Below, one piece after another: positions 8,724-30,554 of a stretch of DNA of 46,824 nucleotides. The notes under the pieces are model-generated. The model was not told the DNA's origin. It did no database searches and saw nothing but the letters and a program-made list of their open reading frames with translations. Source of the stretch: a virus (Duplodnaviria; Heunggongvirae; Uroviricota; Caudoviricetes); IMG/VR virus record IMGVR_UViG_2541047840_000001; one strand, 5' to 3'. The position numbers and the translations under genes were made by a program. The first letter of the stretch is position 1. Each line of letters opens with the position of its first letter.

Positions 8724-8726
8724 ATT

Positions 8727-9254: not shown

Positions 9255-9259
9255 AAATT

Positions 9260-9279: not shown

Positions 9280-9282
9280 GTT

Positions 9283-9816: not shown

Positions 9817-9818
9817 CG

Positions 9819-14024: not shown

Positions 14025-14033
14025 GGATTGAGC

Positions 14034-14381: not shown

Positions 14382-14680
14382 TGAGAACATTAGATGAGGT
14401 GATTGCCAGCCGTTCACCTGAAAGCCAGGCGCGAATTAAAGAAATGGCAGATGAGATGATTCTTGAGGTCGGCTTGCAGATGATGCGTGAAGAACTCCAG
14501 TTATCACAAAAACAGGTTGCTGAGGCGATGGGTATAAGCCAGCCAGCAGTAACAAAGCTGGAGCAGCGCGGAAATGATTTAAAGCTGGCGACATTAAAGC
14601 GTTACGTTGAAGCTATGGGAGGCAAATTAAGCCTGGATGTTGAGCTTCCTACAGGAAAGCGAGTAGCGTTCCATGTCTAA
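14381..14680 (+). CDS. HTH (XRE-family) antitoxin, HigA-like
   Basis: 99 aa, HTH segment LSQKQVAEAMGISQPAVTKLE; downstream position typical of HigA. Confidence 0.7.
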   Translation: MRTLDEVIASRSPESQARIKEMADEMILEVGLQMMREELQLSQKQVAEAMGISQPAVTKLEQRGNDLKLATLKRYVEAMGGKLSLDVELPTGKRVAFHV

Positions 14681-15156: not shown

Positions 15157-15258
15157 TATATAATTATAGATTTATATAAAAAGCGCTTTACAGGTGGGAA
15201 AAAATTTCCTAAGGTTATACCCGAAACCGAGCGATACCCGCCCTGGTTAAACCGGAGA
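15157..15258 (+). repeat. 102-bp regulatory module, copy A (AT-rich promoter-like box + conserved leader + GGAGA RBS)
   Basis: Identical to 24097-24198 except one mismatch (C at 15184 vs T at 24124); ends 7 nt before ATG of 15266. Confidence 0.85.
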
Positions 15259-15265
15259 TAACCCG

Positions 15266-15646
15266 ATGAGCATGATTAAAATCCGCAAAAACGCTTTCCT
15301 TAAAATTCAAACTATCCTGGCTGGTTCTGTTGGCGTGATTTGCCGTTCTTCCTCAAGCCGCATCGATGACGGCTACGATGATGAGTATCGTGTGTCCTCA
15401 TGCGATGAGGCTTTAACCTGGCTGAAGGAGAATCAGGAACGTGCCCAGGTATATCTGGAAACAGAGAACGGCAATCAGATGCTGCGTATTAGCGGTCGTT
15501 ATGGATTTGAAACTACATTCATGGCCTATTTTAATCAGGCTTACTTTGACAAGGAGTTGGCTTGGTACACTGATCGCATGAGCAAAAGCGAGCCAGCCCC
15601 GATTACACCGCCGAACAATAAACCATTTTTATTCCTCGTTAAGTAA
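15266..15646 (+). CDS. Hypothetical protein (126 aa)
   Basis: ORF with GGAGA RBS 7 nt upstream; no recognisable family. Confidence 0.55.
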   Translation: MSMIKIRKNAFLKIQTILAGSVGVICRSSSSRIDDGYDDEYRVSSCDEALTWLKENQERAQVYLETENGNQMLRISGRYGFETTFMAYFNQAYFDKELAWYTDRMSKSEPAPITPPNNKPFLFLVK

Positions 15647-15656
15647 ACACAATGCG

Positions 15657-15679
15657 CAAAGTGTCATTTTGACACTTTG
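15657..15679. promoter_or_regulatory. Perfect palindrome CAAAGTGTCA-TTT-TGACACTTTG between two genes
   Basis: 10-bp perfect arms; lies between the stop at 15646 and the next ATG at 15710. Confidence 0.4.
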
Positions 15680-15709
15680 CGAGTGTTAATATTGTGCGAG
15701 GAGGGTGCT

Positions 15710-15982
15710 ATGACGGGTTATGAATTGAAATTATGGCGTCGTGGGATGAACTGGACGCAGGAGCGAGCCGCCGAAGAATTTGGGATATCGTTGGCTACAT
15801 ATAAGCGATATGAGAAGGGGGAGCCGCCGAGGGTCATTGAGATGGCCATTCGCGTTCTGTCGTTTGACGATATGGTGAAGGATCTTTCACACCTTGATAA
15901 AGACGCGATTCTGTTAAGGCTGCAAACCCTTGTATGGGAAAAGGTTAAAGTGTCGTCAGAATTGGAACAAGGGATCAAATGA
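15710..15982 (+). CDS. HTH XRE-family-like transcriptional regulator
   Basis: ATG at 15710 after GAGGAGGG RBS; segment MNWTQERAAEEFGISLATYKRYEKG is HTH-like. Confidence 0.55.
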   Translation: MTGYELKLWRRGMNWTQERAAEEFGISLATYKRYEKGEPPRVIEMAIRVLSFDDMVKDLSHLDKDAILLRLQTLVWEKVKVSSELEQGIK

Positions 15983-16791: not shown

Positions 16792-17973
16792 TTATGGTCT
16801 GCTTTTCTGTGCCAGCTTATCAGCACATGTTTTTATCAGATCCTGTAGTGTCTTGGCTGGCAGGTTTGCATCCAGTACGCTGAGTATGCTGTTGTGATCA
16901 GCTTGGTCGACTACTTTGCCTGTCGGTGGTAGTAGCTTGAGCTGAGGATTCAGGTTTTCGTCAAAGCTGATAAGTGCTCTGGCGTTTCTGAGCAGATCAA
17001 GAAGTAAGGCTGATATCACATTTTCCTGAGTCATTGCTGGCAGATTTAGCGCCGCTTTGGTTTTCCCTGTTGCCTTGTCAAACTCCTTGATTAGTTCCTT
17101 CCTGTAGTTCGGTTCCGTTAATAGCCGATTATGCTCTGTTGCCGCGCGGATAATCGTTTTTTCTTGGTACAGTCGTTTAGCCAGATCACGCTCGTACTGT
17201 GTTTTTAACACGCTGCTGATAGCGTTAAAGGCTTCAATGTAGGCCAGCTTGATATCTTTCACGCTTGGACCGTCGATGCTCTCCATGAGCAAGGTAAATC
17301 CGTCTTTTGTCATGCGATAGATTGTTATTTCGCGGTCGCTTCCTTCCAACGGTCGTTGCTCTTTAAAAAAATGACGCGCCGCAGCTGTGCGAGGAATGCG
17401 TAACGCATCGATGGCCATAACGATGGAATTGTTTGTGGTGCTGAATGCCTGGGCAACATCGGCTGAGGTTGTGAGTGGCTCGTTATTGCACACCTTAATG
17501 TAAAACATCGGTTTGGCGTTGAGCGTATCGACAACCTCACGAGCATTGCTTGGCGAGACGGTAACGGTCGCGGCCGTTTGTGCGTTCTGGTTGAAATAGC
17601 AGTCTTCCAGCCGTTCGAACACATCCCACGCTTGGTTAGTTTCAAGCATTTTAGCGTGACGTGCAGCCCCGCGTTCTGTCCAGAGGATGAGGGAGCGAAC
17701 TTTCGGGGGAATTTGTAACCCTCTTAAAGATGGTTCGTTAACTACTCTCACAGGAACTCTTAAAGAGTTTTTGTTCTTCAACTCTCGTAACTCTTTACCT
17801 TCTATCCTAAAAAAGTGTTTACCTTCTATAAAACGTTCCTTGTTTCTATTGAAATTGTTTGTCAGACGTTGGCGCTCGGTTCCATACAATTGCGCCAGTA
17901 GTTCAGTAGTGATAACGGGGAGCTGGTTATGCAGGATAGGCTGTAGGGTGTTAACGGTCGGAAGCGTTTTCAT
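16792..17973 (-). CDS. Phage antirepressor-like regulatory protein (ORF6N / Rha-like domains)
   Basis: 393 aa; N-terminal segment ending FIEGKHFF and a central Rha-like segment; calls are from recalled domain patterns. Confidence 0.65.
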   Translation of the reverse strand: MKTLPTVNTLQPILHNQLPVITTELLAQLYGTERQRLTNNFNRNKERFIEGKHFFRIEGKELRELKNKNSLRVPVRVVNEPSLRGLQIPPKVRSLILWTERGAARHAKMLETNQAWDVFERLEDCYFNQNAQTAATVTVSPSNAREVVDTLNAKPMFYIKVCNNEPLTTSADVAQAFSTTNNSIVMAIDALRIPRTAAARHFFKEQRPLEGSDREITIYRMTKDGFTLLMESIDGPSVKDIKLAYIEAFNAISSVLKTQYERDLAKRLYQEKTIIRAATEHNRLLTEPNYRKELIKEFDKATGKTKAALNLPAMTQENVISALLLDLLRNARALISFDENLNPQLKLLPPTGKVVDQADHNSILSVLDANLPAKTLQDLIKTCADKLAQKSRP

Positions 17974-18161: not shown

Positions 18162-18917
18162 GGTGATAGTTCCCTTAAAGGTTAAGGATACTCACCACCG
18201 TCTGGTTCCAATCATTGGGTGGTGAGACGTACAGGGTTGGAACTACCGGTCACCATGGAATCCGGCGAGTCTTACGACTCCCCCGCACGCCCCACCATAA
18301 TTTGGGTGTAGCAGTGCTTTACGCATAAAAAAACCGCTAACGCGGTATGCGCCATGATGATTATCGGGGTTCCAATCCCGGTCGTAGATTTTGCTACGGC
18401 TCGGAAAGTGTCCACCAATGGCGCATTCATGTCAATACGGCGGGATTTTAACAGAGACAACCACATAGCGTGGGTTTATTGGTAGGCAGAAACAAAAAAA
18501 CCGCCCTATTGAGGACGGTTCTTTCGTGCTGATCGGATTCGCGGTCCTTTCAGCATTACGTTGTTGTATAAACAACCACGCAAGCACAAGCAGCAAGTTA
18601 ATTTTACCCAAAAGGTAATAATAGTCCACTATTATGCTTCATAAAATTGTGGTTCTTGTTGTGCCTGCAAACTCACAGATTGTGGGTAGGTTACTGATTT
18701 TGTGAAAATAAACTGGTTTTTTCGTTTAATTTATTTCCTATTACTAATCTTAAAATAATCGTAAAATACCTGTGGACCTTCCCGCCGATTCGCACCCGGG
18801 CACCGACTTTAGGGGAGGATTTCCTGTTGCCGTACATGCAAGCACAAGCAGCCGTGCTTGCTCTCGCGTTGTTTTCGTCGGTGGGGATGCCGTGAAACGG
18901 CCTGTAAGGGCCATACA

Positions 18918-19040
18918 ATGAAAAAATACTGTATGTGTATTTTTATCGTTGTTACTGGGGCTTTGTTTACGCCACATGGGGAGGGTTGGAAGATTACTGA
19001 TAACGCTCTGAATGTGACGATAAACATTAGCAGCAAGTAG
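18918..19040 (+). CDS. Candidate small hydrophobic peptide (40 aa)
   Basis: ATG 18918 with AAGG RBS inside a short hairpin; translation MKKYCMCIFIVVTGALFTPHGEGWKITDNALNVTINISSK; strong terminator immediately downstream. Confidence 0.3.
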   Translation: MKKYCMCIFIVVTGALFTPHGEGWKITDNALNVTINISSK

Positions 19041-19045
19041 CGATT

Positions 19046-19068
19046 AGGCCCCTTCGGGGGCCTTTTTT
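19046..19068 (+). terminator. Rho-independent terminator
   Basis: AGGCCCC-TTCG-GGGGCCT followed by TTTTTT. Confidence 0.65.
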
Positions 19069-19290
19069 ATGGTTGAATTTAAACGCTGGAGCGCATTAAA
19101 CCTTTCAGAACTGCTTCACGTACCCATTCTGGCCTGGTAGATAGCAGGGCAAATAAGCAACCAGCTTGCAGCCGTTTGAGGTCGGTTAGACGAGTTTTCA
19201 GTAACCGTGTATATTGTTGCTCGGACATAACAAATTCCCCTTGTTGTGTCGCGACGGCCAACAGTTGGCGCTGGAGGCCGTCACCTTCTC

Positions 19291-19539
19291 TTACTTCTGG
19301 TTGTATTGAGCCTTGAGTAACTCAAAAGATTTTGTCAGCACTTCTTTCAATGACATATCCATTGAGCTGGCGAACGTTTTGTACTCGCGTTTAAATTCAG
19401 GGTCGACGTTAAACGCCATTTGTGCCCCACCTGATTTGGTTCTGGTCGGCGTTTCAGTCGGGTCGAAAACCTGCGGTTGTTCGATTGATGGCGGTACGCC
19501 TTTGCTGTTCTTTTTCGGTGGTTTTGATGGTGCGGCCAT
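19291..19539 (-). CDS. ParG-like ribbon-helix-helix partition protein
   Basis: 82 aa, disordered N-terminus then FNVDPEFKREYKTFASSMDMSLKEVL, resembling the ParG RHH region as recalled; directly downstream of parA-like gene. Confidence 0.6.
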   Translation of the reverse strand: MAAPSKPPKKNSKGVPPSIEQPQVFDPTETPTRTKSGGAQMAFNVDPEFKREYKTFASSMDMSLKEVLTKSFELLKAQYNQK

Positions 19540-19549: not shown

Positions 19550-19584
19550 TTTTATATAAATCTATAAAACTATAATTATATATT
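19550..19584. repeat. AT-rich dispersed motif copy (TTTTATATAAATCTATAA...TATAATTATATA)
   Basis: Shares TATAAATCTATA and TATAATTATATA cores with other copies; lies between parA stop and parG start. Confidence 0.6.
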
Positions 19585-20236
19585 ACGCGGCAGTAGTCAG
19601 AGCCTCAAGCTGATTGATAATCCCCTGGATAACATCGTCTGCCTTTTTGCGTGGCGCAACGTATGAGCACTCAATGAGGCTTAAGCCCTTATCCTGAGCT
19701 TTGCTCAGAGCTGGCTTGTGGGGAATGTACTTATCGACAACAAAGTATGGCGTATTAGCCAGGTACTCTTGGGCTTCAATATAGTCAGCTTCGTTTTCAG
19801 CCGCGCCGGAAAACACCATGCAAATTTTCTTGATTGGTACACCCTTTTTAACGATGCCGTGAGCTGTGTTAACGGTGGTTTCCAGGTCATCGGTAGAGAA
19901 TCTGGTTGGCAAAATAACCATATCCAGAAATTCAGAGAGCTTCGGTACTGATTCAGATGCGTAGGCACCGCCATCGACGATAACCAAGTCGTATACTTCT
20001 GATTCGATGATTTTCTGGACTTGTGATGGTGTGCCGCACGGCTGCGCCGCGATTGCTGGTTCGATATTGTTGGCCATTCTGCGTTGTACCCAACGCGTTA
20101 CCGTTCCGTTAAGCACATCCATATCGATCAGGCATACATTCCAGCCAGCCTTTGCATAAGCAACTGCTAAAGCACGGGCAATTGTTGATTTGGTTACGCC
20201 GCCTTTTCCGTTGAAAATACCTACAGAGATAGTCAT
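19583..20236 (-). CDS. ParA/ParF-family partition ATPase
   Basis: Deviant Walker A GKGGVTKST near N-terminus; probable start at second ATG (20236) with GGAG RBS; track ORF extends to 20251. Confidence 0.85.
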   Translation of the reverse strand: MTISVGIFNGKGGVTKSTIARALAVAYAKAGWNVCLIDMDVLNGTVTRWVQRRMANNIEPAIAAQPCGTPSQVQKIIESEVYDLVIVDGGAYASESVPKLSEFLDMVILPTRFSTDDLETTVNTAHGIVKKGVPIKKICMVFSGAAENEADYIEAQEYLANTPYFVVDKYIPHKPALSKAQDKGLSLIECSYVAPRKKADDVIQGIINQLEALTTAA

Positions 20237-20257
20237 TTGTCGAGACTCCATGTGTTT

Positions 20258-20290
20258 GATTATATAATTCTATAAATCTATATTTATAGA
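20258..20290. repeat. AT-rich dispersed motif copy upstream of parA
   Basis: GATTATATAATTCTATAAATCTATATTTATAGA. Confidence 0.6.
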
Positions 20291-20330
20291 ACGAGGTAAG
20301 CATAACCAACTTTTTGGCGGATGAAAAGCG

Positions 20331-20365
20331 TTTTATATAATTATATAAATCTATAATCATATAAG
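20331..20365. repeat. AT-rich dispersed motif copy upstream of parA
   Basis: TTTTATATAATTATATAAATCTATAATCATATAAG, followed by hairpin GCGGGC-GTTA-GCCCGC (20365-20380). Confidence 0.6.
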
Positions 20366-20386
20366 CGGGCGTTAGCCCGCTTGCAG

Positions 20387-20761
20387 TCAGAGGTCAGCTA
20401 TCGTTGATATCAGTTGATTTGCTAGCTGTCGCTGTTTACGTGAGAGGGTTAGAGCAGCTTCTGAGCGGTCGCTAAGAGGGGTGTTTTCATCGAGAATCAT
20501 GAGGCATACAGAAATAATAGCTCTGTTATATGCCATCAATGGCTGGCACAGCTTCGATACCGCTGGCACATCGTATTGTAAGGCCGTTTTGAGGCAGATT
20601 TTTTGTTCTGATGCCAGATGAAGGATAGATTCTATCCAGTCGATATCTTTCTCATTATCAATGATTTGGCATAACATACACTCAATCGCTATGTTCAACG
20701 CTTGGATTTCGATTCCAGCAGTGATCAGAGTTTCGTTTTTATTGGCTGTATGTAATTCCAT
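20387..20761 (-). CDS. Hypothetical protein encoded immediately downstream of the repressor gene
   Basis: 124 aa ORF; operator-like palindrome at 20797-20811 between it and the repressor gene. Confidence 0.5.
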   Translation of the reverse strand: MELHTANKNETLITAGIEIQALNIAIECMLCQIIDNEKDIDWIESILHLASEQKICLKTALQYDVPAVSKLCQPLMAYNRAIISVCLMILDENTPLSDRSEAALTLSRKQRQLANQLISTIADL

Positions 20762-20796
20762 GCGTAGCCTCTTTTATACTTTCACATGTTGTCAAA

Positions 20797-20811
20797 ACCA
20801 CAAAGCGTGGT
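20797..20811. promoter_or_regulatory. ACCAC-N5-GTGGT palindrome (repressor operator-like; also a terminator-like hairpin with T7 on plus strand)
   Basis: ACCACAAAGCGTGGT followed by TTTTTTT; same half-site consensus as palindromes in the cI-cro intergenic region. Confidence 0.45.
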
Positions 20812-20853
20812 TTTTTTGAGCGTAGAAATGCACGGCTTTCGCCGTGCTGTGTA

Positions 20854-21510
20854 TCATAACCAGTTGACAACACTAACTACGCGGCCCAGAACTTTATAAC
20901 GCTTAAATTCCTCGTTATTCAGATGCTTAGTGTTCATTTCAGCATCCCTTTCGGTTGACAGCATAACAGCATTGTCACCCGGTATGACTCTACAGTGCCT
21001 CAAAACAACCAGGCCATTTCTGTCTTCAAGGGCATAGATCCCCTCATGAATCTCTGTATCGTCTGTATCAATCAGGACTTGGGAGCCAGGGGATATTGTT
21101 GGTGACATTAACTCATCGTTGCTCTGGAGAACTGACAGAGACGATGGGTTGATGTTCTTGCTTCGTAGAATCTCCTGTTCTATCGCCAGCACTGGCTTTT
21201 CTCCGGCGTGCGATGCTATGTCATTTTTTATAGCTACAAGCCCAGGAATAACAGGAGCGTTAGTATTCTGGGGTGGGAACGGGTTATCTGTTAAGCACGC
21301 GATATAAGGCGCTGATGCTTTCAGGGCGTGCGCGATTTTCTTGATGGCAGGTATAGATGGTTGTCTTAATCCGGCCTCATAGTTCTGCAAGGTGCTTAAG
21401 CCTATTCCAGTGACTTGCTGGAGATCTCCGGCAGTCATGCCGGATTGTTTCCGTAGAGTCTGAATGCGCAGACCTATTTCTTTCTTGATGTTCTCGTCGT
21501 TGCTTTTCAT
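20854..21510 (-). CDS. CI-like prophage repressor (N-terminal HTH, C-terminal S24/LexA-like peptidase)
   Basis: 218 aa; N-terminal HTH-like segment; C-terminal half consistent with an S24 autoproteolytic domain; divergent from a Cro-like gene. Confidence 0.8.
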   Translation of the reverse strand: MKSNDENIKKEIGLRIQTLRKQSGMTAGDLQQVTGIGLSTLQNYEAGLRQPSIPAIKKIAHALKASAPYIACLTDNPFPPQNTNAPVIPGLVAIKNDIASHAGEKPVLAIEQEILRSKNINPSSLSVLQSNDELMSPTISPGSQVLIDTDDTEIHEGIYALEDRNGLVVLRHCRVIPGDNAVMLSTERDAEMNTKHLNNEEFKRYKVLGRVVSVVNWL

Positions 21511-21547
21511 GTCTCATCAATCGTGAATGGTGGGTTATTTATACATT

Positions 21548-21562
21548 ACCACATTTAGTGGT
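21548..21562. promoter_or_regulatory. Operator-like palindrome ACCAC-ATTTA-GTGGT
   Basis: Perfect 5-bp arms, in divergent promoter region between repressor and cro-like genes. Confidence 0.5.
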
Positions 21563-21650
21563 TTTCACATGGTAAGACGAGAGGTGGACCACAAATAGAA
21601 GGTTATTTTTTGTTTTGCCCATTGAAAAACTCACGATATGTGGTTTTAAT

Positions 21651-21665
21651 ACCACATATCGTGGT
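21651..21665. promoter_or_regulatory. Operator-like palindrome ACCAC-ATATC-GTGGT
   Basis: Perfect 5-bp arms; a related palindromic sequence CACGATATGTGG lies at 21632-21643. Confidence 0.5.
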
Positions 21666-21684
21666 TTTAACTGGAGTTCGTTAA

Positions 21685-22179
21685 ATGACCTTTCAGGAGT
21701 GGGTTGACGAAAATGGAGGCCAAATTGGTGTTGCCAGAAAGTTTGGCTTTACGTCATCACTGATTGGTGCCTGGTATCGCTTCGAGAGATTCCCTCGTGC
21801 GGATAACCTGACGCTGCTGGTGGCGTATTCGGAAGGCCGGATTAACGTCCAGCAATGGGCGGCAGATTTTGCCGAACGTCAGCGCCAGCGTAGCGATGGC
21901 ACATCGGTTCGGCAGAACAAGATCAAAGGGAATCTCCCTGTTAACTGCTTATCAAGGCTGAAAGCGGTTTTCTCTGAGTTGGGGATGCCTGCGGAGCGTT
22001 GCAATCTACGCGGTCCGCGATTCATTGCTCGCTGGAAACACTCACACGTAACCGTTTCAGAGGTTCGTGATGCGATTACCGTGCTGGAGCTTAAGAATAA
22101 AGATTCCAGCGATATCGAGCTGATTCATAAGGAGATTAGCAACGCCCGGCGTTCAGCACTTGGGAGGCTTGAGGAATGA
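21685..22179 (+). CDS. Early regulator, Cro/YdaS-like N-terminal HTH with C-terminal extension (tentative)
   Basis: 164 aa, first gene transcribed divergently from repressor; CTGGAG RBS. Confidence 0.5.
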   Translation: MTFQEWVDENGGQIGVARKFGFTSSLIGAWYRFERFPRADNLTLLVAYSEGRINVQQWAADFAERQRQRSDGTSVRQNKIKGNLPVNCLSRLKAVFSELGMPAERCNLRGPRFIARWKHSHVTVSEVRDAITVLELKNKDSSDIELIHKEISNARRSALGRLEE

Positions 22180-22691
22180 TGATTCTGGCCTTCTTTGGTG
22201 ATAATCACCAGATTCAATCGAAGGTGGTGCATTACCTTGATCAAACGATTAAAGGATTTGCTATCGATCATATTGATAACGATAGCAAACATCTATCTGT
22301 AGATCAGAAAATTGGACGTGTGCAGCGACTGGTTGCCAGCCGTAACAGACGTGACACCGTAACAGTAGTCACGGGGATAACGGAGGTCATGGAGTACCAG
22401 ATGTTGCTGCATCGTGGAGCTGTTTTCTGCGTTCTTCCTGGCATTCTGCCAGCAATTCTTGCTCGTGGTTTTGTCCCTATTGATGAGTCGTTTTTATATG
22501 TAACCCCAAGCCGTTCCCTTCTGGATACGGAGGCGAAGCGTCGCATTTATATGATGCCGGACGAGGCATTTTCTGAATGTTACCGCCGTGAAATGAGGTT
22601 GGGTAAACGAGAAGTGTCTGTTGTTCGTGATGGCAGGTTTTTAAGAAGCCGCACGGTGAAAAGCACCAGAAATGACGGGGGCCATCAATGA
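22176..22691 (+). CDS. Hypothetical early-region protein
   Basis: 171 aa ORF coupled to flanking genes. Confidence 0.5.
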   Translation: MMILAFFGDNHQIQSKVVHYLDQTIKGFAIDHIDNDSKHLSVDQKIGRVQRLVASRNRRDTVTVVTGITEVMEYQMLLHRGAVFCVLPGILPAILARGFVPIDESFLYVTPSRSLLDTEAKRRIYMMPDEAFSECYRREMRLGKREVSVVRDGRFLRSRTVKSTRNDGGHQ

Positions 22692-22921
22692 GTAGTTATG
22701 TTCGCGGTGCTGCGATGCATTGCCAGAATCCCCAATTCTGGCGCTTTCTGACCAGTAAAACAGGGAAGAACGTTTCAAACAGTTCTGAGGCCTCTGTGAT
22801 TCTGCGTGAGTTTTGCGGGATCTCATCCCGTAAAGAGCTGGCAAAGAACTACGCGGCCAGAAGCATGTATGTCCAGTTAATCAACGAGTTCAACCTCTTT
22901 ATCAATGGTAAGGGGCGCTGA
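22688..22921 (+). CDS. Hypothetical early-region protein
   Basis: 77 aa ORF, overlapping stops/starts with neighbours. Confidence 0.4.
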   Translation: MSSYVRGAAMHCQNPQFWRFLTSKTGKNVSNSSEASVILREFCGISSRKELAKNYAARSMYVQLINEFNLFINGKGR

Positions 22922-23325
22922 TGAACGGACGTACACCAACGAAGAAAGAGAAACTTTATATACAAGCGGTGCTCACTCACGTGGGTTGCATAGCTTGCAT
23001 TATTGATGGCCGTGAAATTGAGAATCCAGAGCTGTGGACGGAGCTACATCACGATCCTGATTACGGCAGCGTTGATGAGAATTGCCACTTCCATAGCTTT
23101 GGGTTGTGCGCACCACATCATCGCGGTGTTGTGCCTGGTGGTGGGCGCGTGCCTCCGCATATTGCCGTTCGTCACCCTCCCCTGAGTAATTGTGCTCGCT
23201 TTGTTGAGCGTTATGGCACCGATGAATTTTTGTGTGCGCAGACGTGGGAGCTGTTGCCGCAGTCAGTTAAAGACGAAATTGGGTTTGATCTTAGTCTTGG
23301 TGAAGTACCAGGGGATACCAAATGA
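22921..23325 (+). CDS. Cys/His-rich putative HNH-type nuclease (Ref-like, tentative)
   Basis: 134 aa with CIAC and HH...CHFH...HH motifs suggesting a zinc-binding HNH-like fold. Confidence 0.45.
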   Translation: MNGRTPTKKEKLYIQAVLTHVGCIACIIDGREIENPELWTELHHDPDYGSVDENCHFHSFGLCAPHHRGVVPGGGRVPPHIAVRHPPLSNCARFVERYGTDEFLCAQTWELLPQSVKDEIGFDLSLGEVPGDTK

Positions 23326-23654
23326 GATATACCGGCTTTCGCAAACCAGCGACCAGGAAAAGCAAATACGGCAATAAAAAAACTGTTGTCGATGATATCT
23401 CTTTTGATAGCAAAAAAGAGGCTGATTACTACTGCGAACTGAAGCTACTGAGAAAAGCTGGCCGCGTTGTGACGTTTCTTATGCAGGTGCCTTTTCATCT
23501 GCCAGGTGGTGTCGTTTATAAACTTGATTTCATGGTGTTTTATGACGATGGGACGATTGATTGTGTCGACACTAAAGGTGTGCGAACAGACGTCTACATC
23601 ATGAAGAAAAAGCAGGTAGAGGCGCTTTATCCCGTCACGATACGGGAGATCTGA
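23322..23654 (+). CDS. DUF1064-like phage protein (tentative)
   Basis: 110 aa; N-terminal KYGNKKTVVDDISFDSKKEADYY pattern recalled from DUF1064 family phage proteins. Confidence 0.55.
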   Translation: MRYTGFRKPATRKSKYGNKKTVVDDISFDSKKEADYYCELKLLRKAGRVVTFLMQVPFHLPGGVVYKLDFMVFYDDGTIDCVDTKGVRTDVYIMKKKQVEALYPVTIREI

Positions 23655-23657
23655 ACA

Positions 23658-24035
23658 GTGAGACGCGATCTGGATAGCTTGTTTGAGCTATGGGCGCTGT
23701 GGGTGCGCAATGGCTGCAACGCCCGTAGCGGTTTCGCGTCGATGTTAGAAATGATGATGGTTACGCGCTGCCAGTTTACCGGAGGGGGCGGCGCACCAAA
23801 TGACTCACTGGAAACCAGTATCGAGGGAGCGGTGACGGCCCTCACGGTAGTTGATGAGACTGCGGCGCTGGTTGTCCGAATTGAATACGGGGCGTGGGAG
23901 ATTCGGGGCCTCGACATAAATGCACCGCATATTGATAAAGCCCACGCCCTTTCTCTTAGTCTCAGACAGTATCGCCGGAAGCTGGCAAAAGCCAGGGCGT
24001 ATGTTGTCGACTATTTGAAAAAGCGAAGAGAGTAA
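23658..24035 (+). CDS. Putative late-gene antiterminator (Q-like, tentative)
   Basis: 125 aa, last gene of early region immediately before the duplicated module and late-region genes; weak resemblance to small Q-family proteins. Confidence 0.4.
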   Translation: MRRDLDSLFELWALWVRNGCNARSGFASMLEMMMVTRCQFTGGGGAPNDSLETSIEGAVTALTVVDETAALVVRIEYGAWEIRGLDINAPHIDKAHALSLSLRQYRRKLAKARAYVVDYLKKRRE

Positions 24036-24096
24036 AAGTGTCATTTTGAGCTGTTTTGATGGTGTGTAGATATCGGGAACATCGAAAATCTATAAA

Positions 24097-24198
24097 TATA
24101 TAATTATAGATTTATATAAAAAGTGCTTTACAGGTGGGAAAAAATTTCCTAAGGTTATACCCGAAACCGAGCGATACCCGCCCTGGTTAAACCGGAGA
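24097..24198 (+). repeat. 102-bp regulatory module, copy B
   Basis: One mismatch to 15157-15258; ends 7 nt before ATG of 24205. Confidence 0.85.
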
Positions 24199-24204
24199 AA
24201 TCTG

Positions 24205-25272
24205 ATGAATAAACAAGTAATTATTTCTGACTGGATCAACAACCCTAACAGCCTGTTAAGCACTGATACTGGCTACCTATTACGCCATGTTAATGGTCGT
24301 ATGGTCAAAAGCGATGAGCACGAAACCTTTTTCTTTGTTGAAGATGATGGGCGTATCTATGAGGATGGTTACTCTTATGAAGCCCAAACTGGTTGTATCC
24401 CTGCGGAGCTGGTGGACGTAACAGAAGATCTGCGCAAAGCATGGCTTGAACAGCAGCAGCGCGGAGATGATTACGTAAACACCTATCAGGAACGCCAGAA
24501 CGCGCGTCTTGCCCGATATATTGCTCGTGCAGAAAAAGCCAGAAAAGAAGGTGCGGTAGCGCATAAGCGAGCGCATGACCTGTTGGATGTGATCCCGTTA
24601 GGCCAGCCGATTTTAGTTGACCATTATAGCGCGAAAGGCCATCGCCGCCGTTTGTCTAAAGCTGATGCGTTATTAAGAAAAGCGTTTGTTGAATGCGAAA
24701 GTAAAGCATCACACTACGAGAGCAAAGCCGCAGGTGTTGGTCGTAATGGAATTTCGTCTGATGATCCTGATGCGCTATTTAAGTTGCTTCGTAAGCTGCA
24801 AGGCTGCATGAAGTCACACGTCAAAATGAAGGCCGCAAATAAGGCCATTCGCAAATACAAAAAAGACCAATTACAGCAGCTTTCTGCATTAATCGATCTC
24901 AGGTTTACAGAAAGCGAAGCCAAAGAGTTACTGGCCGGAGATTTCTGTGGGCGCATCGGATTCCCTTCATACGTACTGAGCAACAATAACGCCGAGATCA
25001 AACGACTACAGAGCCGTATTAAGGAGCTTGAATCGGTCAAGTCTGTAACAGGAGCACAGCGCGAAGAATACGACGACTTTTCTATGGAGATAGATCCAGA
25101 GGATAACCGCATCCTGTTTTATTTCCCTGGCAAACCAGAGGCAAACATTCGTTCGCTGCTTAAATCACGCGCCTTTAAGTGGAGTCCAACCCGTAATGCA
25201 TGGATTCGCAAAATTACTCCAAATGCCCTGGCTGATGCCCGATATCTGAAAGAATCGCTATTGAAAGCCTGA
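24205..25272 (+). CDS. DUF3560-like protein (function unknown)
   Basis: 355 aa; C-terminal ILFYFPGKP...KWSPTRNAWIRK segment recalled from the DUF3560 family. Confidence 0.55.
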   Translation: MNKQVIISDWINNPNSLLSTDTGYLLRHVNGRMVKSDEHETFFFVEDDGRIYEDGYSYEAQTGCIPAELVDVTEDLRKAWLEQQQRGDDYVNTYQERQNARLARYIARAEKARKEGAVAHKRAHDLLDVIPLGQPILVDHYSAKGHRRRLSKADALLRKAFVECESKASHYESKAAGVGRNGISSDDPDALFKLLRKLQGCMKSHVKMKAANKAIRKYKKDQLQQLSALIDLRFTESEAKELLAGDFCGRIGFPSYVLSNNNAEIKRLQSRIKELESVKSVTGAQREEYDDFSMEIDPEDNRILFYFPGKPEANIRSLLKSRAFKWSPTRNAWIRKITPNALADARYLKESLLKA

Positions 25273-25283
25273 CAGTAAGCCTA

Positions 25284-25303
25284 CGGCGGGATGTCTCCCG
25301 CCG
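25284..25303 (+). terminator. Hairpin CGGCGGG-ATGTCT-CCCGCCG after DUF3560 gene
   Basis: 7-bp GC stem followed by TA-rich tract. Confidence 0.45.
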
Positions 25304-25338
25304 TATATAGAATTATATATTTATATAAATGTATAAGG
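25304..25338. repeat. AT-rich dispersed motif copy
   Basis: TATATAGAATTATATATTTATATAAATGTATAAGG. Confidence 0.55.
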
Positions 25339-25349
25339 ACGCCTCGACA

Positions 25350-25631
25350 ATGAAACGCAAAATTATTAACCCCCAAGATGTGATTAATTTCCTGACCGAT
25401 CACCCATGTTCAAAAGTGGACGTAATCGCGGAGCACATTGGTGTGTCGCAGAACTCTATGCGTTGCAGACTGAGAAGCATGGTTGCCGAAGGACAGATAA
25501 CAACCAGGAAAATAAATGGTTGCCTGTACTACTCCGCTAAACCGGAATTGCCATTTGGCATGAACCCTAACTCCATGTTGTTTAACACCTTATTAGCCAA
25601 AGTTAAGCCGTTGAGAGGGGCTGTGGCATGA
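25350..25631 (+). CDS. Small putative DNA-binding protein
   Basis: 93 aa from ATG 25350 (track ORF starts 25329). Confidence 0.45.
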   Translation: MKRKIINPQDVINFLTDHPCSKVDVIAEHIGVSQNSMRCRLRSMVAEGQITTRKINGCLYYSAKPELPFGMNPNSMLFNTLLAKVKPLRGAVA

Positions 25632-25993
25632 GCATCAAAACCCATACCGGAATAATCATCACCATTGATGGTGAGAAAAAAGTGAAGTTACGCGAAACGC
25701 CGACAACTTGGTGTGTTGGTCCGAAAGAAACATATCGCAAGGAAGATGGGCGCCGTTGTGGGTCGCCACTTTCCAGCCGTCGCCTCCTTTTGAGCACGAT
25801 AAAACCTATCGGGCAGGTTGAGCAACCAACGACTCCGGTAACGAAGATTTCAGACAAGAGTCTGGCAAATCTGATCGCAGATGCGGACAAGGTGCTGGAG
25901 CGGAACACCCCCGTTGCAGATGAGGAGTGGTGGCAGGATTTCCGAGCCGCAATGCTAGAGCTTCAGGAACGTCGTCGGGAGGAGTTGAAGTGA
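25628..25993 (+). CDS. Hypothetical protein
   Basis: 121 aa, coupled. Confidence 0.45.
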   Translation: MSIKTHTGIIITIDGEKKVKLRETPTTWCVGPKETYRKEDGRRCGSPLSSRRLLLSTIKPIGQVEQPTTPVTKISDKSLANLIADADKVLERNTPVADEEWWQDFRAAMLELQERRREELK

Positions 25994-26013
25994 GCAAGGT
26001 GAAAGAGCGCGGC

Positions 26014-26619
26014 ATGATTTTTAATGATGAGATGGTCCGAGCCATCCTCGAAGGCAGGAAGACGCAGACTCGTCGACCTGTAAAAAATGTCAGGGCCGAT
26101 AACTGCCTGGTTATCAGTAAACCGACAAAGAAACGCAATGGTGTCTATACCCACGTTATGGATGCACCTGAGCATGGCTTATGCCCGTTCGGTAACGTTG
26201 GTGATCGCATATGGGTACGTGAGACATTCAACGCTTTTTGGCTGGATGACGATGTTATTCAGGAAATCAAAGATGGTGTCTCTCTGGCTTCTGAACTGTG
26301 TGATTACAAGGCTGATTACTCAGATAGTAACAAGCCATCTGAGGGCTGGACCCCGTCAATTCACATGCCGAGATGGGCATCGCGAATTTTGCTGGAAATT
26401 ACCGACGTGCGTGTGGAGCGGCTGCATGACATGAGCGAGGCAGATGCCAAAGCGGAAGGCGCATCTCCGGCAACGTACAAGATTACGCCGCCGGAAGCTG
26501 TTTATCGTGTTGGTTTTGGTGATATCTGGCGCGGTATTTACGGGCAAGAGAACTGGCTATCTAACCCGTGGGTATGGGTAATTGAGTTTAAACGTATTCA
26601 GGGGGCAAACAGTGAGTAA
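26014..26619 (+). CDS. ASCH (PUA-like) domain protein (tentative)
   Basis: N-terminal MVRAILEGRKTQTRRP resembles the ASCH GRKTxTxR signature; start could instead be GTG 25990. Confidence 0.5.
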   Translation: MIFNDEMVRAILEGRKTQTRRPVKNVRADNCLVISKPTKKRNGVYTHVMDAPEHGLCPFGNVGDRIWVRETFNAFWLDDDVIQEIKDGVSLASELCDYKADYSDSNKPSEGWTPSIHMPRWASRILLEITDVRVERLHDMSEADAKAEGASPATYKITPPEAVYRVGFGDIWRGIYGQENWLSNPWVWVIEFKRIQGANSE

Positions 26620-26869
26620 TTCCGCACGGCTACAGCTTGGTTTTTCACCGCTATCAAAAACCATCGTGTTGGCCAAAATGCGCGATTTAGGTGACGGAAC
26701 AAAACGCCGTGTAGGCAATGATCGCGGTCGTGATGTAACCAACGAGGCCGCACAACTCGTTTGGCATCTTGTCATGGCAGAAGGCGGTGAAATCAATTGG
26801 GAGCTGGATGATGGTTCTCGCATGGTGTTAAGGGCAGAAAAGCAGGGGGCAAACGATGAAAAACCGTAA
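26582..26869 (+). CDS. Hypothetical protein
   Basis: ORF from track; true start uncertain. Confidence 0.35.
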   Translation: MSLNVFRGQTVSNSARLQLGFSPLSKTIVLAKMRDLGDGTKRRVGNDRGRDVTNEAAQLVWHLVMAEGGEINWELDDGSRMVLRAEKQGANDEKP

Positions 26870-27050
26870 AGCAAAGATTCTGTTAGTTCGTAGAAACGCT
26901 CCTGGCGTCTGGCAGTGGGTGAGACTCAGCAACCGACGGATGGGGTTAATGAAACATTACGGGATGATGGATTGTGGTTTTTGCAAAAAGCCCAGCGCGG
27001 CGCAAAACCGCTGGAAAAACCACTGTTATCTGCGCACTAAAGGAGAGTGA
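26856..27050 (+). CDS. Hypothetical small basic protein
   Basis: 64 aa ORF from track. Confidence 0.35.
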   Translation: MKNRKAKILLVRRNAPGVWQWVRLSNRRMGLMKHYGMMDCGFCKKPSAAQNRWKNHCYLRTKGE

Positions 27051-27051
27051 G

Positions 27052-27567
27052 ATGGCGTTAACACACCGCGAACTCTGTCAGATTGCGTACAAGTTCCTTA
27101 AGCGCAACGGGTTCAAGGTTTGCTTTCATGACCGCTTTATAGCTGTAACCAGTACCGGAGAACAGCCAGATGCTATGGGATTCAGAAATTCAGCATCATG
27201 CCTGATAGAGGCAAAGTGTTCTCGTGCTGACTTGTTGGCAGATAGAAAAAAGCGTTTCCGTAAAAATCCCTCACTTGGCATGGGCGACTGGCGATTCTTT
27301 ATTAGTGAGCCGGGAATTATTTCAGTTGAGGATTTACCTCCCGGCTGGGGATTACTTCACGTTGTTAACGGAAGAGTACGGAAAGTACATGGGTGGCCCA
27401 AGGGAAATTGCTGTTGGGGTAATCCTGACGATAAGCCATTTACTGGAAATAAGCAGGTTGAATGCGATTACATGTTATCTGCATTAAGGCGCATGGAGTT
27501 GAGAGGGCACCTTAATGAAATATATGACGGTGTAATTGTTAATAAGAAAGAAGGAAACGCGGCATGA
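27052..27567 (+). CDS. Putative PD-(D/E)XK-fold nuclease
   Basis: ATG 27052 after AGGAGAG; motif QPD...(12 aa)...IEAK fits the PD-(D/E)XK pattern. Confidence 0.5.
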   Translation: MALTHRELCQIAYKFLKRNGFKVCFHDRFIAVTSTGEQPDAMGFRNSASCLIEAKCSRADLLADRKKRFRKNPSLGMGDWRFFISEPGIISVEDLPPGWGLLHVVNGRVRKVHGWPKGNCCWGNPDDKPFTGNKQVECDYMLSALRRMELRGHLNEIYDGVIVNKKEGNAA

Positions 27568-28007
27568 TTACTATTACCAAAGAGCGACTACTGACAATCA
27601 AGCAGTGGCGCGAAACATACGGACCTAGTAGCAACGTTGTACTGCCAGCAGAAGAAGCGGAAGAACTGGCACGAATTGCTCTGGCAGCGCTGGAAGTCGA
27701 GCCGGTTGCAGTAAACGACGACATGGCTTACGCATTCCATCACGCATTGTCAGATTCATCGCTAGGCGCTGATGAAGTAGAGGAAATTAAGGCCGGTTTG
27801 CGTGCTGCCTTTGCCAACGTCACTATCCAACCAGAGCCGGTAGTGCCGGATGATGGTCGCGAAAAGTTCGAAGCACTTGTCAGGTTTCATGCGGGTGATA
27901 AAGACCATGAAACATTATTGCTTCGTGCCAACGAAGGGATGAATTACCAGGACCCGAATGTTGATCTGGCGTGGATATTCTGGAAGTCCAGTCGTGAACA
28001 TATATAA
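27564..28007 (+). CDS. Hypothetical acidic protein
   Basis: 147 aa, coupled to upstream gene. Confidence 0.5.
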   Translation: MITITKERLLTIKQWRETYGPSSNVVLPAEEAEELARIALAALEVEPVAVNDDMAYAFHHALSDSSLGADEVEEIKAGLRAAFANVTIQPEPVVPDDGREKFEALVRFHAGDKDHETLLLRANEGMNYQDPNVDLAWIFWKSSREHI

Positions 28008-28348
28008 GCTGTAGTGAGAAGCCATGCGATTACGAGCAGTATTCAGATATTCAGAGCGGATAATGAAGCACATACAACCGAAAACATGGCAGAAACTGGA
28101 CTCTATGGGAGTTAAGTTGGAGAAGATTACTCAACTTAAGCAGTGGCATATCGGCGAATATTATGGAAGTCCTGGCCGGGATGTTCGTTTGGCAAAAAGT
28201 TGAGTATTGTTTTTTTATTGATCGATTAACCACGATTTGAAGGTTTTTTTTATGAGAAAACCTTGTTTTAGGTGGTAACTGGGTGTAGTGTTTCATTTAA
28301 CGTAGTAAAACTGCGTTAAGCGATTACCGCGTAATTTGTTGCTTTATG

Positions 28349-28381
28349 AAGCCCTGCCTTTTTCGGCGGGGCTTTTTTTTT
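28349..28381 (+). terminator. Rho-independent terminator-like hairpin upstream of lysis cassette
   Basis: AGCCCTGCC-TTTTTC-GGCGGGGCT followed by TTTTTTTT. Confidence 0.5.
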
Positions 28382-28394
28382 AACGAGGATTTCA

Positions 28395-28790
28395 ATGTCA
28401 GCAGAACCAATTTCCGGTACGGCCGTTGCTGCTGGTGGCCTGATGGGGGCCAGCGTTTTTGGTATTGCAACTGGTATTGATTACGGCGTTGTATTCGGGG
28501 CATTTGCTGGCGCTGTTTTCTATGTTGCTACAGCGGTGAATATTAGCCGTCTCAAGCTGATTGGCTATTTCTTTACATCGTTCATTGTTGGAGTGATTGG
28601 AGCGCCGTTAGTTGGCTCATTTCTTGCCAAATGGACCAGCTACAACGATCGTCCTCTGGATGCGCTTGGTGCGGTTATTGTGGCTGCATTGACCATTAAA
28701 ATCCTCACGTTCGTAAACAGCCAGGATCTCGGTAGCATCTTTGGAATGCTTTCCCGCTTACGTGGAGGGGGTTCAAATGGTAAGCAGTGA
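28395..28790 (+). CDS. Putative holin (multi-pass membrane protein)
   Basis: 131 aa with several hydrophobic Gly/Ala-rich segments; first gene of lysis cluster. Confidence 0.6.
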   Translation: MSAEPISGTAVAAGGLMGASVFGIATGIDYGVVFGAFAGAVFYVATAVNISRLKLIGYFFTSFIVGVIGAPLVGSFLAKWTSYNDRPLDALGAVIVAALTIKILTFVNSQDLGSIFGMLSRLRGGGSNGKQ

Positions 28791-29073
28791 CCCGTCAGCA
28801 CTGATTAATGCGGTGCTTTGCACAGTAATAGTAATGGCGCTGATGCTTTATCGACGGAAAGACTCCAGGCATCGTCCATTTGTTTCCTTTCTGGCTTATA
28901 TCTACGTCATTGTATACGCCAATGTTCCCTTCCGTTATGTGTTCGGTCTTTATCAAGAATCCCACTGGCTGGTGGTTATTGGAAATCTGATTATCTGCAT
29001 CGTTGTTCTGTATTTCAGGGGCAATCTGGCGCGGATAGTTGACGCATTAGGATTTAATCATGACCAAAGATGA
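28774..29073 (+). CDS. Second small membrane protein (holin or antiholin-like)
   Basis: About 99 aa with 2-3 hydrophobic segments, overlapping holin end and endolysin start. Confidence 0.5.
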   Translation, partial: QMVSSDPSALINAVLCTVIVMALMLYRRKDSRHRPFVSFLAYIYVIVYANVPFRYVFGLYQESHWLVVIGNLIICIVVLYFRGNLARIVDALGFNHDQR

Positions 29074-29602
29074 GATTTTTAACAGCATTCTTGGAAAAGA
29101 GGGCGGTTATGTTGATCACCCTGACGACAAGGGAGGCCCAACAATGTGGGGCATCACTCAGAATACTGCCCGTGCTCACGGATACCGTGGCGATATGCGA
29201 GATCTGACGCGAGAACAGGCTCTGATGATTCTTGAAGGTGATTATTGGTATGGGCCTCGTTTTGACCAGGTGGCGCAATTTTCCCCTGATATTGCGGCTG
29301 AGATGTGCGATACGGGCGTCAACATGGGGCCGACTGTGGCTACGAAGATGCTTCAACGTTGGCTGAATGTTTTCAACCGTGGCGGGAAGTTGTATCCAGA
29401 TATGGATGTGGATGGGCGAATCGGCCCGCGCACCATTGCGGCATTACGTGCTTATCTTGGGAATCGGGGAAAAGACGGCGAACGGGTAATGCTGACGGCC
29501 CTTAACTGTACGCAGGGCGACCGTTATCTGGACCTGGCGGAGAAACGCGAAGCAAATGAGTCGTTTGTCTATGGCTGGATGAAAGAGCGAGTGGTGGTAT
29601 GA
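29060..29602 (+). CDS. Endolysin (GH108-like N-terminal domain with peptidoglycan-binding C-terminal domain)
   Basis: 180 aa; N-terminal ILGKEGGYVDHPDDKGGPTMWGIT typical of GH108 lysozymes; lysis-cassette position. Confidence 0.75.
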   Translation: MTKDEIFNSILGKEGGYVDHPDDKGGPTMWGITQNTARAHGYRGDMRDLTREQALMILEGDYWYGPRFDQVAQFSPDIAAEMCDTGVNMGPTVATKMLQRWLNVFNRGGKLYPDMDVDGRIGPRTIAALRAYLGNRGKDGERVMLTALNCTQGDRYLDLAEKREANESFVYGWMKERVVV

Positions 29603-29877
29603 CTGGTTTGAAAGCCGTTTTGTCATTTATCGGCACCATTATATTGGTTGCATTCGGCGCATTTGGTTTTGGTCGTATGAAGGGGCGAGAAAAGGCCGAA
29701 GATGAAGCTGAAAAGCAGCGCATTAATGAGAATGCAGCCGCCGTAAAAGCCACTGCGGAGCGGCGTATAGAAGTGACAAAAGAGGTGGGGAATGTACAGC
29801 AGAGTGTTAACCATATGGCTGATGACGATGTTGATCGCGAGCTGCGGGAGTCGTGGAAGCGTCCCGGTGGTGGTTGA
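29599..29877 (+). CDS. i-spanin (Rz-like)
   Basis: N-terminal transmembrane segment then charged coiled-coil region; follows endolysin. Confidence 0.6.
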   Translation: MTGLKAVLSFIGTIILVAFGAFGFGRMKGREKAEDEAEKQRINENAAAVKATAERRIEVTKEVGNVQQSVNHMADDDVDRELRESWKRPGGG

Positions 29878-30001
29878 TACCGCCTGTGATTGGGTAAAGC
29901 CCATCTACCTGACTGATCACGATATCGATGTTATGGACCGCCAGACAAAGAAAGATATTCTGGCTCATAACAGGGCATGGGAAATCAACTGCCTCAAGTA
30001 A
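29792..30001 (+). CDS. o-spanin (Rz1-like lipoprotein), overlapping i-spanin in another frame
   Basis: LIASC lipobox-like sequence, Pro-rich; overlaps the 3' end of the Rz-like gene. Confidence 0.5.
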   Translation: MYSRVLTIWLMTMLIASCGSRGSVPVVVDTACDWVKPIYLTDHDIDVMDRQTKKDILAHNRAWEINCLK

Positions 30002-30034
30002 TATATATTTCTATAATTATATAAATATATAGTT
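30001..30034. repeat. AT-rich dispersed motif copy
   Basis: ATATATATTTCTATAATTATATAAATATATAGTT. Confidence 0.55.
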
Positions 30035-30170
30035 ACAACATTCTATGCGCTTTTCTCATGAGCGCACGCATCAACCATGTTTGTCTGATATGCCGCCGCG
30101 CCCAAAAATCCTGAATTTATTGGCTGGGATTTTCGTGCGCGGCGCCACACCAGACAAACAGATCAAATAT

Positions 30171-30246
30171 GGCCCCTTAGCTCAGTGGTTAGAGCAGGCG
30201 ACTCATAATCGCACGGTCATCGGTTCAAATCCGGTAGGGGCCACCA
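30171..30246 (+). tRNA. tRNA with CAU anticodon (closest to tRNA-Ile2 type; tRNA-Met not excluded)
   Basis: 7-bp acceptor stem GGCCCCT/AGGGGCC, anticodon loop CTCATAA, T-loop GGTTCAAATCC, 3' CCA encoded; 5' half matches E. coli ileX as recalled from memory. Confidence 0.8.
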
Positions 30247-30554
30247 ATTCACTCTCACACATAAAGATAAGCGCGGTGGAGTTACTTCCTTCGTGCTCAT
30301 CTTTATGCGTGCCTGGTGCGCATTTCGGGCGAACGTGGGGCTAAGTTACAGGCAGGGCCTGTTATCCGCAAAGGGGTAAAAGCTGGAGCGGCGCGGAACT
30401 GTAGCCGTGTTACCAAAACAGCGTTGTCGGGCGATATCCGGCACACAACAGGCAAGGGCATTAATCAGTCTGGTTAGTGCCCTTTTCGTTGTGTTTGCTG
30501 TAGGGCTGGCCAGCATTATGACTGCCGGAGATAAGCGCCGGAGGCACAACTAAC

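Follow-up and report, generated by a model that had tools for sequence, protein, structure and literature searches.

The window examined here is a 46,824-nucleotide (nt) stretch of viral DNA (Caudoviricetes; IMG/VR record IMGVR_UViG_2541047840_000001) that represents a nearly complete phage-plasmid of ~48 kilobases (kb), and the system in question is its partition (par) locus together with a set of short tandem repeats found there and at other operons. On the minus strand, parA (19583-20236) encodes a small Walker-type partition ATPase of type Ib with 217 amino acids, the whole length of which is spanned by the Pfam CbiA/ParA/MipZ matches and in which no helix-turn-helix (HTH) domain was found; it scores 78.6 bits against the NCBIfam model ParA_partition, under the curated cutoff of 180. 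Directly downstream, on the same strand, lies a gene for an 82-amino-acid ParG-like protein (parG; 19291-19539). Along the direction of transcription, the terminator-like hairpin of an upstream gene for a 124-amino-acid protein is followed by the parA-distal array P2 (20336-20363, minus strand; four perfect boxes), 4 nt, a predicted parA promoter read from the sequence (TTTTCA-17-TATGCT, 20299-20327, minus strand), 8 nt, the parA-proximal array P1 (20263-20290, minus strand; four boxes), the ribosome-binding site and parA, array G (19555-19582, minus strand; four perfect TATA boxes), and the ribosome-binding site and parG. P2 thus extends from ~-44 to -72 and P1 from ~+2 to +30 relative to the predicted parA start, the latter reaching toward the ribosome-binding site, and together they flank the predicted promoter, as is expected of type Ib loci with repeats around the ATPase promoter. 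The 43 nt separating parA from parG are taken up by array G, which abuts the ribosome-binding site of parG, 12 nt from its start codon. The locus therefore holds three arrays with 12 boxes within 830 base pairs (bp).

An earlier note on this DNA had described a dispersed, AT-rich motif of ~25 bp at seven loci. The motif is indeed present at every one of them, but an array of 8-bp units in tandem describes it better than a single 25-mer does. Every unit combines a TATA box of 4 bp (TAGA, TCTA, or TGTA in some cases) with an AT-rich spacer of 4 bp, for example AATC, ATTA, GATT, or TAAT. In the window, there are seven such arrays with 27 boxes, three to four per array, which start at 15157/65/73 (A), 19555/63/71/79 (G), 20263/71/79/87 (P1), 20336/44/52/60 (P2), 24089/97/105/113 (D), 25306/14/22/30 (E, with a second register from 25308), and 30004/12/20/28 (F). 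All seven are intergenic, as the earlier note had stated, and all are confined to 15.1-30.1 kb; the structural gene blocks are not preceded by an array. Six of the seven share the polarity of the downstream gene and end in TATATAAA.

The frequency of the motif is far above expectation. Allowing at most one mismatch, TATAAATCTATA has 13 matches in the window versus 0.28 expected and TATAATTATATA has 19 versus 0.35, and none of 100 shuffles reached the observed count for either. As a stricter control, the 79 AT-rich segments of the window (G+C content of 25% or less over 40 bp; 5 kb in total) were subjected to 1,000 dinucleotide-preserving shuffles. At least three TATA boxes at 8-bp spacing occur as eight chains in these segments, compared with 0.009 in the shuffles (maximum of 1), and chains of three or more TATA boxes at periods of 4-7, 9, and 11-13 bp were absent from the same segments. 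Because the 8-bp chains exceed what shuffles matched for AT-rich composition produce, the composition of AT-rich intergenic DNA, which the earlier note had named as the finding that would undo its proposal, is ruled out as the explanation.

Arrays at operons outside the par locus

The placement of the arrays is as previously reported, with two upstream of parA, one in the gap separating parA from the small gene that follows it, two at a 102-nt duplicate, one before the gene at 25350, and one before the tRNA-Met/methylase block. Array A (15157-15180, plus strand) has three boxes (TATAtaat, TATAgatt, and TATAtaaa) and ends 6 nt before the -35 element of a sigma-70-like promoter read from the sequence (TTTACA-17-TAAGGT, 15187-15215, plus strand), which precedes genes for a 126-amino-acid protein and an HTH protein (15266-15982). 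The spacer of this promoter contains an inverted repeat, GGAAAAAATTTCC, that is possibly an operator for a second regulator. Array D (24089-24120, plus strand; four boxes, one of them degenerate) lies upstream of a gene with a Pfam DUF3560 match (24205-25272) and ends 6 nt before the -35 element of a second copy of TTTACA-17-TAAGGT (24127-24155, plus strand). Both belong to the 102-nt duplicate, the copies of which (15157-15258 and 24097-24198) are 99% identical and comprise the array, the promoter, and a leader of ~45 nt. A reading of the duplicated leader (15222-15285) as a structured RNA was rejected, as it folds no better than shuffles (z = -1.0). Homologous modules of array, promoter, and leader head two to three genes in the Salmonella and Citrobacter relatives, where the promoter reads TTTACA-17-TATGGT, and are found at 16933-17021, 19273-19361, and 26230-26318 of the Serratia plasmid pJSRIV006_2, where it reads TTGCAG-17-TATTCT.

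Array E (25306-25335, plus strand) has four boxes in two overlapping registers, with a terminator-like hairpin on one side and the ribosome-binding site of the gene at 25350 on the other; that gene encodes a 93-amino-acid MarR/winged-helix-like protein (25350-25631) and heads the operon at 25.3-28 kb. Array F (30004-30031, plus strand), with four perfect boxes, lies ~140 nt upstream of the tRNA-Met gene (30171-30246), beyond which are the MT-A70 and ParB_N-domain methylase genes. The DNA between array F and tRNA-Met contains an inverted repeat of 34 nt (30078-30160) with 85% complementarity, and a 99-amino-acid open reading frame (ORF) that overlaps tRNA-Met (30045-30344) is probably spurious. 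A consensus promoter scan of the window returned 17 promoters versus 24 expected, which is no excess, and the promoters inferred at parA, A, and D were not among them, the one at A falling below its threshold; these three rest on positional conservation across lineages. Beyond the seven arrays, a weak two-box half-site, TAGATTTATATAAAA (TAGAtttaTATAaaa), is present at 584-598 on the plus strand, inside the ORF at 49-2037. TTGTCA follows it, and over 38 nt the site matches the array-promoter junction of A and D at 71% identity; it may reflect chance or a weak internal site.

Comparison of par loci across lineages

Contigs and plasmids encoding homologues 35-48% identical to the 82-amino-acid protein were used for comparison. 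Wherever the upstream region was recovered, the homologue directly follows a small ParA, and arrays of 8-bp units whose box is specific to the lineage are present in the par region of nine of nine loci. Arrays arranged around the parA promoter as in the window recur in eight further lineages. In its full form, the layout in these relatives runs from a distal array through a sigma-70-like promoter, a proximal array, parA, and a gap array to parG. Another phage-plasmid (L013) has AATTCTTT (AATT-CTTT; three perfect units) at the distal, proximal, and gap positions, with TTTACA-17-TATGCT as the promoter. The Serratia plasmid pJSRIV006_2 (L009), which combines lambda-like structural genes with the same plasmid and early module, has AAAT/NTTT boxes in two arrays flanking TTTACA-17-TAATCT, and a phage-plasmid fragment (L008) has the same boxes in a par locus that includes the gap array, with TTTACA-17-TAAGCT. 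The par loci of a further phage-plasmid (L007) and a short contig (L010) carry ACAT/ATGT and CGCT/AGCG, respectively, and a marine contig (L011) carries GTAC upstream of its parG-like gene. Elements of a different kind follow the same plan: a contig with a type IV coupling protein and without phage genes (L012) has AATT-CGTT in a par locus including the gap, a mobilizable plasmid of Pseudomonas avellanae (L015/L016) has AATT-AGCT at the distal, proximal, and gap positions with TTGCAC-16-TATACT, and a 24-kb conjugative plasmid of E. coli (L014; NZ_CP101228.1) has TATA/TATT at the proximal and gap positions.

In the regions examined of the non-phage plasmids L012, L014, and L015, parA and parG are the only array-adjacent genes in common with the window, which points specifically to the ParG-like protein as the array reader and excludes the phage repressor and the 124-amino-acid protein as the common binder. 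ParA proteins of type Ib have no sequence-specific DNA-binding domain. In an alignment of 12 proteins, positions 40, 42, and 44 of the predicted beta-strand are mostly hydrophobic, and positions 39, 41, and 43 vary with the box: QAN or QSN is paired with TATA, ANN or PNN with AAAT-NTTT, SNK with CTTT, and DGK with AGCT. Conserved and variable positions thus alternate as would be expected of the DNA-reading ribbon of a ribbon-helix-helix (RHH) protein.

Among close relatives, found in Salmonella, in Citrobacter, and on one metagenomic contig and with 79-90% identity in ParG, the sequences of arrays P1, P2, and G hardly vary, in contrast to the diverging promoter DNA that separates them, and equivalents of A, D, and E are retained. 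In one element (L002), array G has one whole extra unit. Arrays outside par that carry the lineage's own box were also found in four other elements. In the Serratia plasmid, four of the six arrays are outside par, three of them upstream of genes headed by the promoter-leader module and one upstream of a Lar gene (27687). L013 has a single such array, at 6541, upstream of a Lar-type gene, and L007 likewise has one, at 4724, after parG. The two arrays before Lar-type genes, in the Serratia plasmid and in L013, are equivalents of array E. In L014, two arrays (3866-3895 and 5639-5668) lie in gaps of a VirB-type type IV secretion system operon, on the strand opposite the genes. By contrast, the Pseudomonas plasmid has arrays at par only, and the 20 kb of L012 that were read showed none beyond that locus. 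Since such arrays are present in some elements and absent in others, dispersal is a recurrent but optional elaboration, and since a conjugative plasmid has them, it is not limited to phage-plasmids. The use of one box throughout each element suggests that its dispersed and par sites would have a single, lineage-specific reader.

Candidate reader of the arrays

The 82-amino-acid protein probably consists of a disordered basic tail and an RHH domain. Its first ~38 residues are rich in lysine and proline and predicted to be disordered, and they are followed by a short segment, QMAFNV, taken as the beta-strand, and by helices at residues 46-58 and 63-79. An AlphaFold2 model built with a 53-sequence alignment has a predicted local distance difference test score above 90 over the helical part. 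An exhaustive HMMER search recovered 62 representatives at E ≤ 1e-3, mostly of 74-90 amino acids and with the same layout. The Pfam family RHH_10 is matched by 19 of 53 family members and further members match RHH families of the antitoxin type, and no ParB or HTH domain was found by Pfam in the protein itself. With hhalign, the family profile could be placed in register with the RHH domain of ParG from plasmid TP228 (probability of 51%, E = 1.5e-4), a profile match to Protein Data Bank (PDB) entry 1p94 has an E value of 0.82, and the Pfam ParG family (PF09274) is matched by 1 of 53 members (E = 0.018) and not by the protein itself, which is thus not assigned to it. Because the RHH and ParG signals came from family-level profiles only, we hold the RHH fold to be probable rather than proven. 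The family's entry in PHROGs, phrog_6024, carries no function, and a tblastn search with a homologue placed the family in at least 233 PLSDB plasmids, including one from E. coli ATCC 25922.

Given the gene order, the site architecture, and the change of box with the protein, we consider it likely that the arrays are the DNA sites of the ParG-like protein and would serve both as a centromere and as operators. By analogy with TP228 ParG, an RHH dimer would read each 4-bp TATA box through its beta-ribbon, and dimers at adjacent boxes, 8 bp apart, would cooperate in binding across the AT-rich spacers until the three to four boxes of an array are coated. The par arrays together would constitute the centromere and an operator for auto-repression, the latter being proposed because of where P2 and P1 sit relative to the predicted parA start. 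The basic N-terminal tail would recruit the ParA ATPase and stimulate its activity, with the partition complex forming at par. At A, D, E, and F, occupancy by the ParG-like protein may tune transcription in proportion to its own level, repression being the more likely outcome, and the dispersed arrays could also add centromere capacity or contribute to the partition complex. The fold of the protein and its binding, repression, and partition activities are in this sense inferred. The suggestion in the earlier note of a ParG-type operator or dispersed centromere thus gains comparative support from the ParG-like gene after parA, the site grammar, and the box that changes with the protein, while its comparison with the dispersed centromere of N15 stands as an analogy only, as N15 uses a type Ia SopA/SopB system whose ParB is an HTH rather than an RHH protein. 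Its further suggestion of an operator for a global regulator is compatible with our interpretation, with the ParG-like protein itself as the most likely regulator.

Several points weigh against this assignment. The AlphaFold2 model shows two helices and no strand, although a monomer model might not show one. The 82-amino-acid protein itself matched neither Pfam nor NCBIfam, had no sequence match in the PDB by phmmer, and gave no hit to TP228 ParG by BLASTP; two structure-database searches returned nothing informative on the fold. The link between box and beta-strand comes from ~9 lineages that are phylogenetically non-independent, and there is no simple code: a one-residue rule in which Gln39 specifies TATA was rejected, as L011 pairs Gln39 with GTAC boxes. 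The predicted parA promoter is a weak match (8/12), and at E, F, and G no promoter could be assigned convincingly. Finally, three to four boxes per array is at the lower limit of sufficiency in both TP228 and pSM19035. In TP228, four boxes gave about half of the plasmid retention obtained with the full centromere (PMC3130281), and in pSM19035, three repeats activate ParA poorly (PMC9499535). With arrays this short, single dispersed arrays may be weak centromeres.

The arrays might instead be operators of another regulator encoded by the element, the candidates being the 124-amino-acid protein (20387-20761), the 93-amino-acid MarR-like protein behind array E, and a 101-amino-acid HTH protein (15677-15982). 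The genes for these candidates adjoin arrays, the phage-plasmid relatives retain them, and two of them sit behind arrays, as expected of an autoregulator. However, the layout recurs in L012, L014, and L015, where no counterpart of the candidates was seen beside par, and tandem 8-bp units of box and spacer suit RHH proteins (PMC3130281) better than HTH dimers, and we regard this alternative as unlikely. The cI-like repressor has a palindrome of its own, at 21631-21664, and arrays are also present in plasmids in which a gene of this kind was not seen, for which reasons scattered immunity-repressor operators resembling those of P1 C1 were rejected as well.

Less likely again is that the arrays are promoter elements, whether clusters of -10-like TATAAT, UP elements, or the phage-specific promoter class proposed in the earlier note, that would be recognized by RNA polymerase or a phage factor. 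TATAAT-like hexamers are abundant in the arrays, the polarity shared with the downstream gene and the common TATATAAA end would fit such a role, A, D, and P2 lie at the position of an UP element, and TATAAT within P1 and P2 was picked up by the consensus scan, though on the strand opposite parA. Sister lineages, however, have CTTT, CGTT, AGCT, and GTAC boxes in the same places, which are impossible as -10 or UP elements, and a separate sigma-70-like promoter lies beside, not inside, the arrays at parA, A, and D. The position of the arrays also varies, from upstream of the -35 element (A, D, and P2) to downstream of the predicted start (P1) and within an operon, close to a start codon (G). The structural gene blocks are without arrays, the same architecture occurs in the non-phage plasmids, and neither a phage RNA polymerase nor a sigma factor was seen among the ORFs scanned. 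That the arrays are sites for host nucleoid proteins (H-NS, IHF, or Fis) or merely AT-rich or curved intergenic DNA is hardly credible: they are very AT-rich and intergenic, but the window's other AT-rich segments, 70-odd in number, lack the strict 8-bp phasing, a period of 8 bp is out of phase with the DNA helix and so speaks against intrinsic curvature, and a lineage-specific box is unexpected for a shared host protein.

If the arrays are read by the ParG-like protein, the closest model is ParF/ParG of TP228, a type Ib system with the parH centromere and the OF operator from a plasmid of E. coli and Salmonella. ParG sites in TP228 consist of 4-bp ACTC boxes with 4-bp AT-rich spacers, each box being bound cooperatively by one dimer, and the OF operator doubles as a centromere (PMC3130281). 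The window shares the order of a small Walker ParA followed by an ~80-amino-acid protein with a tail and a probable RHH domain, as well as arrays of 4-bp boxes and 4-bp AT-rich spacers that lie upstream of the ATPase gene and overlap its promoter. It differs in having TATA rather than ACTC boxes, arrays of 3-4 rather than 8 and 12 boxes, and an 82-amino-acid protein with neither significant pairwise similarity to ParG nor the Pfam ParG match. Moreover, the TP228 sites are described only upstream of parFG (PMC3130281), whereas the window has one array between the par genes and four more at other promoters kilobases away.

Such a spread is familiar from other systems. The omega protein of pSM19035 is an RHH protein of which one dimer binds each tandem repeat, and its arrays overlap the copS, delta, and omega promoters, serving as both parS and operator (PMC9499535). 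The four arrays of the window outside par resemble, by position, this use of arrays at several operons besides par in the omega/delta system of inc18 plasmids. In contrast, omega reads 7-bp WATCACW heptads, 7-10 per array, rather than 8-bp TATA units in sets of 3-4, and no period-7 chains were found here; its hosts are Firmicutes, and the genes it controls are those for copy control and toxin-antitoxin systems, not phage early genes or a tRNA. KorB of the IncP-1 plasmids RK2 and RP4 is a partition protein that acts at scattered sites as a global repressor, and the phage-plasmid N15 has several separated centromere sites for SopB. In both, sites of a partition protein are scattered over the replicon as in the window, but they belong to type Ia systems with a large HTH ParB and 13- to 16-bp inverted repeats, with no RHH protein and no tandem 8-bp units; the 217-amino-acid ParA of the window, its 82-amino-acid partner, and tandem units in place of a single inverted repeat do not fit the N15/F type. 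MetJ, of which one RHH dimer binds each 8-bp metbox in operators of 2-5 tandem units with cooperation between neighbors, would share the combination of an RHH protein with tandem 8-bp units. It differs as a chromosomal metabolic repressor that needs a co-repressor and has neither a partition role nor a ParA partner. The window would thus be best described as a type Ib ParA/RHH partition system that combines a TP228-like site grammar with a site spread like that of omega and KorB.

A broader proposal, which we advance only tentatively and which could well prove wrong, is that the partition protein doubles as a master regulator of phage and accessory operons and of a tRNA gene through dispersed mini-centromeres, with segregation coupled to the phage program. 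The level of the ParG-like protein would then follow plasmid copy number, and the set of sites, rewritten across lineages together with two to three residues of the beta-strand, would represent a natural specificity code for RHH proteins. The analysis proposes a function for an unannotated family (phrog_6024), predicts a centromere for a common phage-plasmid lineage of E. coli, Salmonella, Citrobacter, and Yersinia, and outlines a possible seven-site regulon linking plasmid maintenance to phage genes. The ~9 pairs of box and beta-strand could also serve as a data set for engineering RHH specificity. The principle itself is already known from TP228, pSM19035, RK2, and N15, and known biology would be extended rather than overturned.

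Other features of the element

Over the 10.5 kb compared, the element is 98% identical to Yersinia phages vB_YpM_39/41/44 and equally to ~60 non-mobilizable E. coli plasmids of 46-50 kb, one of them from the reference strain ATCC 25922 (NZ_CP009073.1). No paper was found on this phage-plasmid lineage, on the 82-amino-acid protein family, or on the closest phage name, and the literature under "p0111" mostly concerns P1-like elements. The structural genes are of the myovirus type, the plasmid and control genes include an IncFII-type RepA and a cI-like HTH/S24 repressor, and the window also encodes a Ref nuclease, lysis genes, and tRNA-Met. The DNA immediately downstream of the par operon carries, on the strand opposite to it, a full-length match to the Rfam RNA ryfA (18772-19068, plus strand; 143 bits, E = 7e-37). 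On the minus strand, Rfam matches to a P1-like C4 antisense RNA (18215-18302; 84 bits) and to isrK (18327-18400; 65 bits) lie upstream of an antirepressor-like gene with ORF6N/Rha domain matches (16792-17973), an arrangement that looks like the immI antirepressor control module of the P1/P7 type.

Nested inverted repeats at 7723-10783 and 10854-11408 (83 nt at 95% and 167 nt at 74%) flank the ORFs for tail fiber and tail-fiber assembly, beside a serine recombinase with Resolvase and HTH_7 domains, and this segment looks like an invertible host-range segment of the Cin/Gin type. Three direct repeats of 93 nt, 70-84% identical, at 6944-7336 fall within the large tail-fiber ORF (6369-8723) and are coding repeats. 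Upstream of a toxin-antitoxin-like Gp49/HTH pair (14028-14680), TTATA-containing repeats with a 14-bp period (TTATAACTCACAGGTTATATAGTTAGTGATATAAACTACAGGTTATAGG) occupy 13965-14031; they probably form the operator of this pair and have no relation to the 8-bp arrays. Between the gene for the cI-like repressor (20854-21510, minus strand) and the divergent early operon that begins at 21685 on the plus strand, the palindrome at 21631-21664 has a 14-bp stem (TCACGATATGTGG...CCACATATCGTG) and is probably an immunity operator or a bidirectional terminator, and analogous palindromes were found in L007 and L013.

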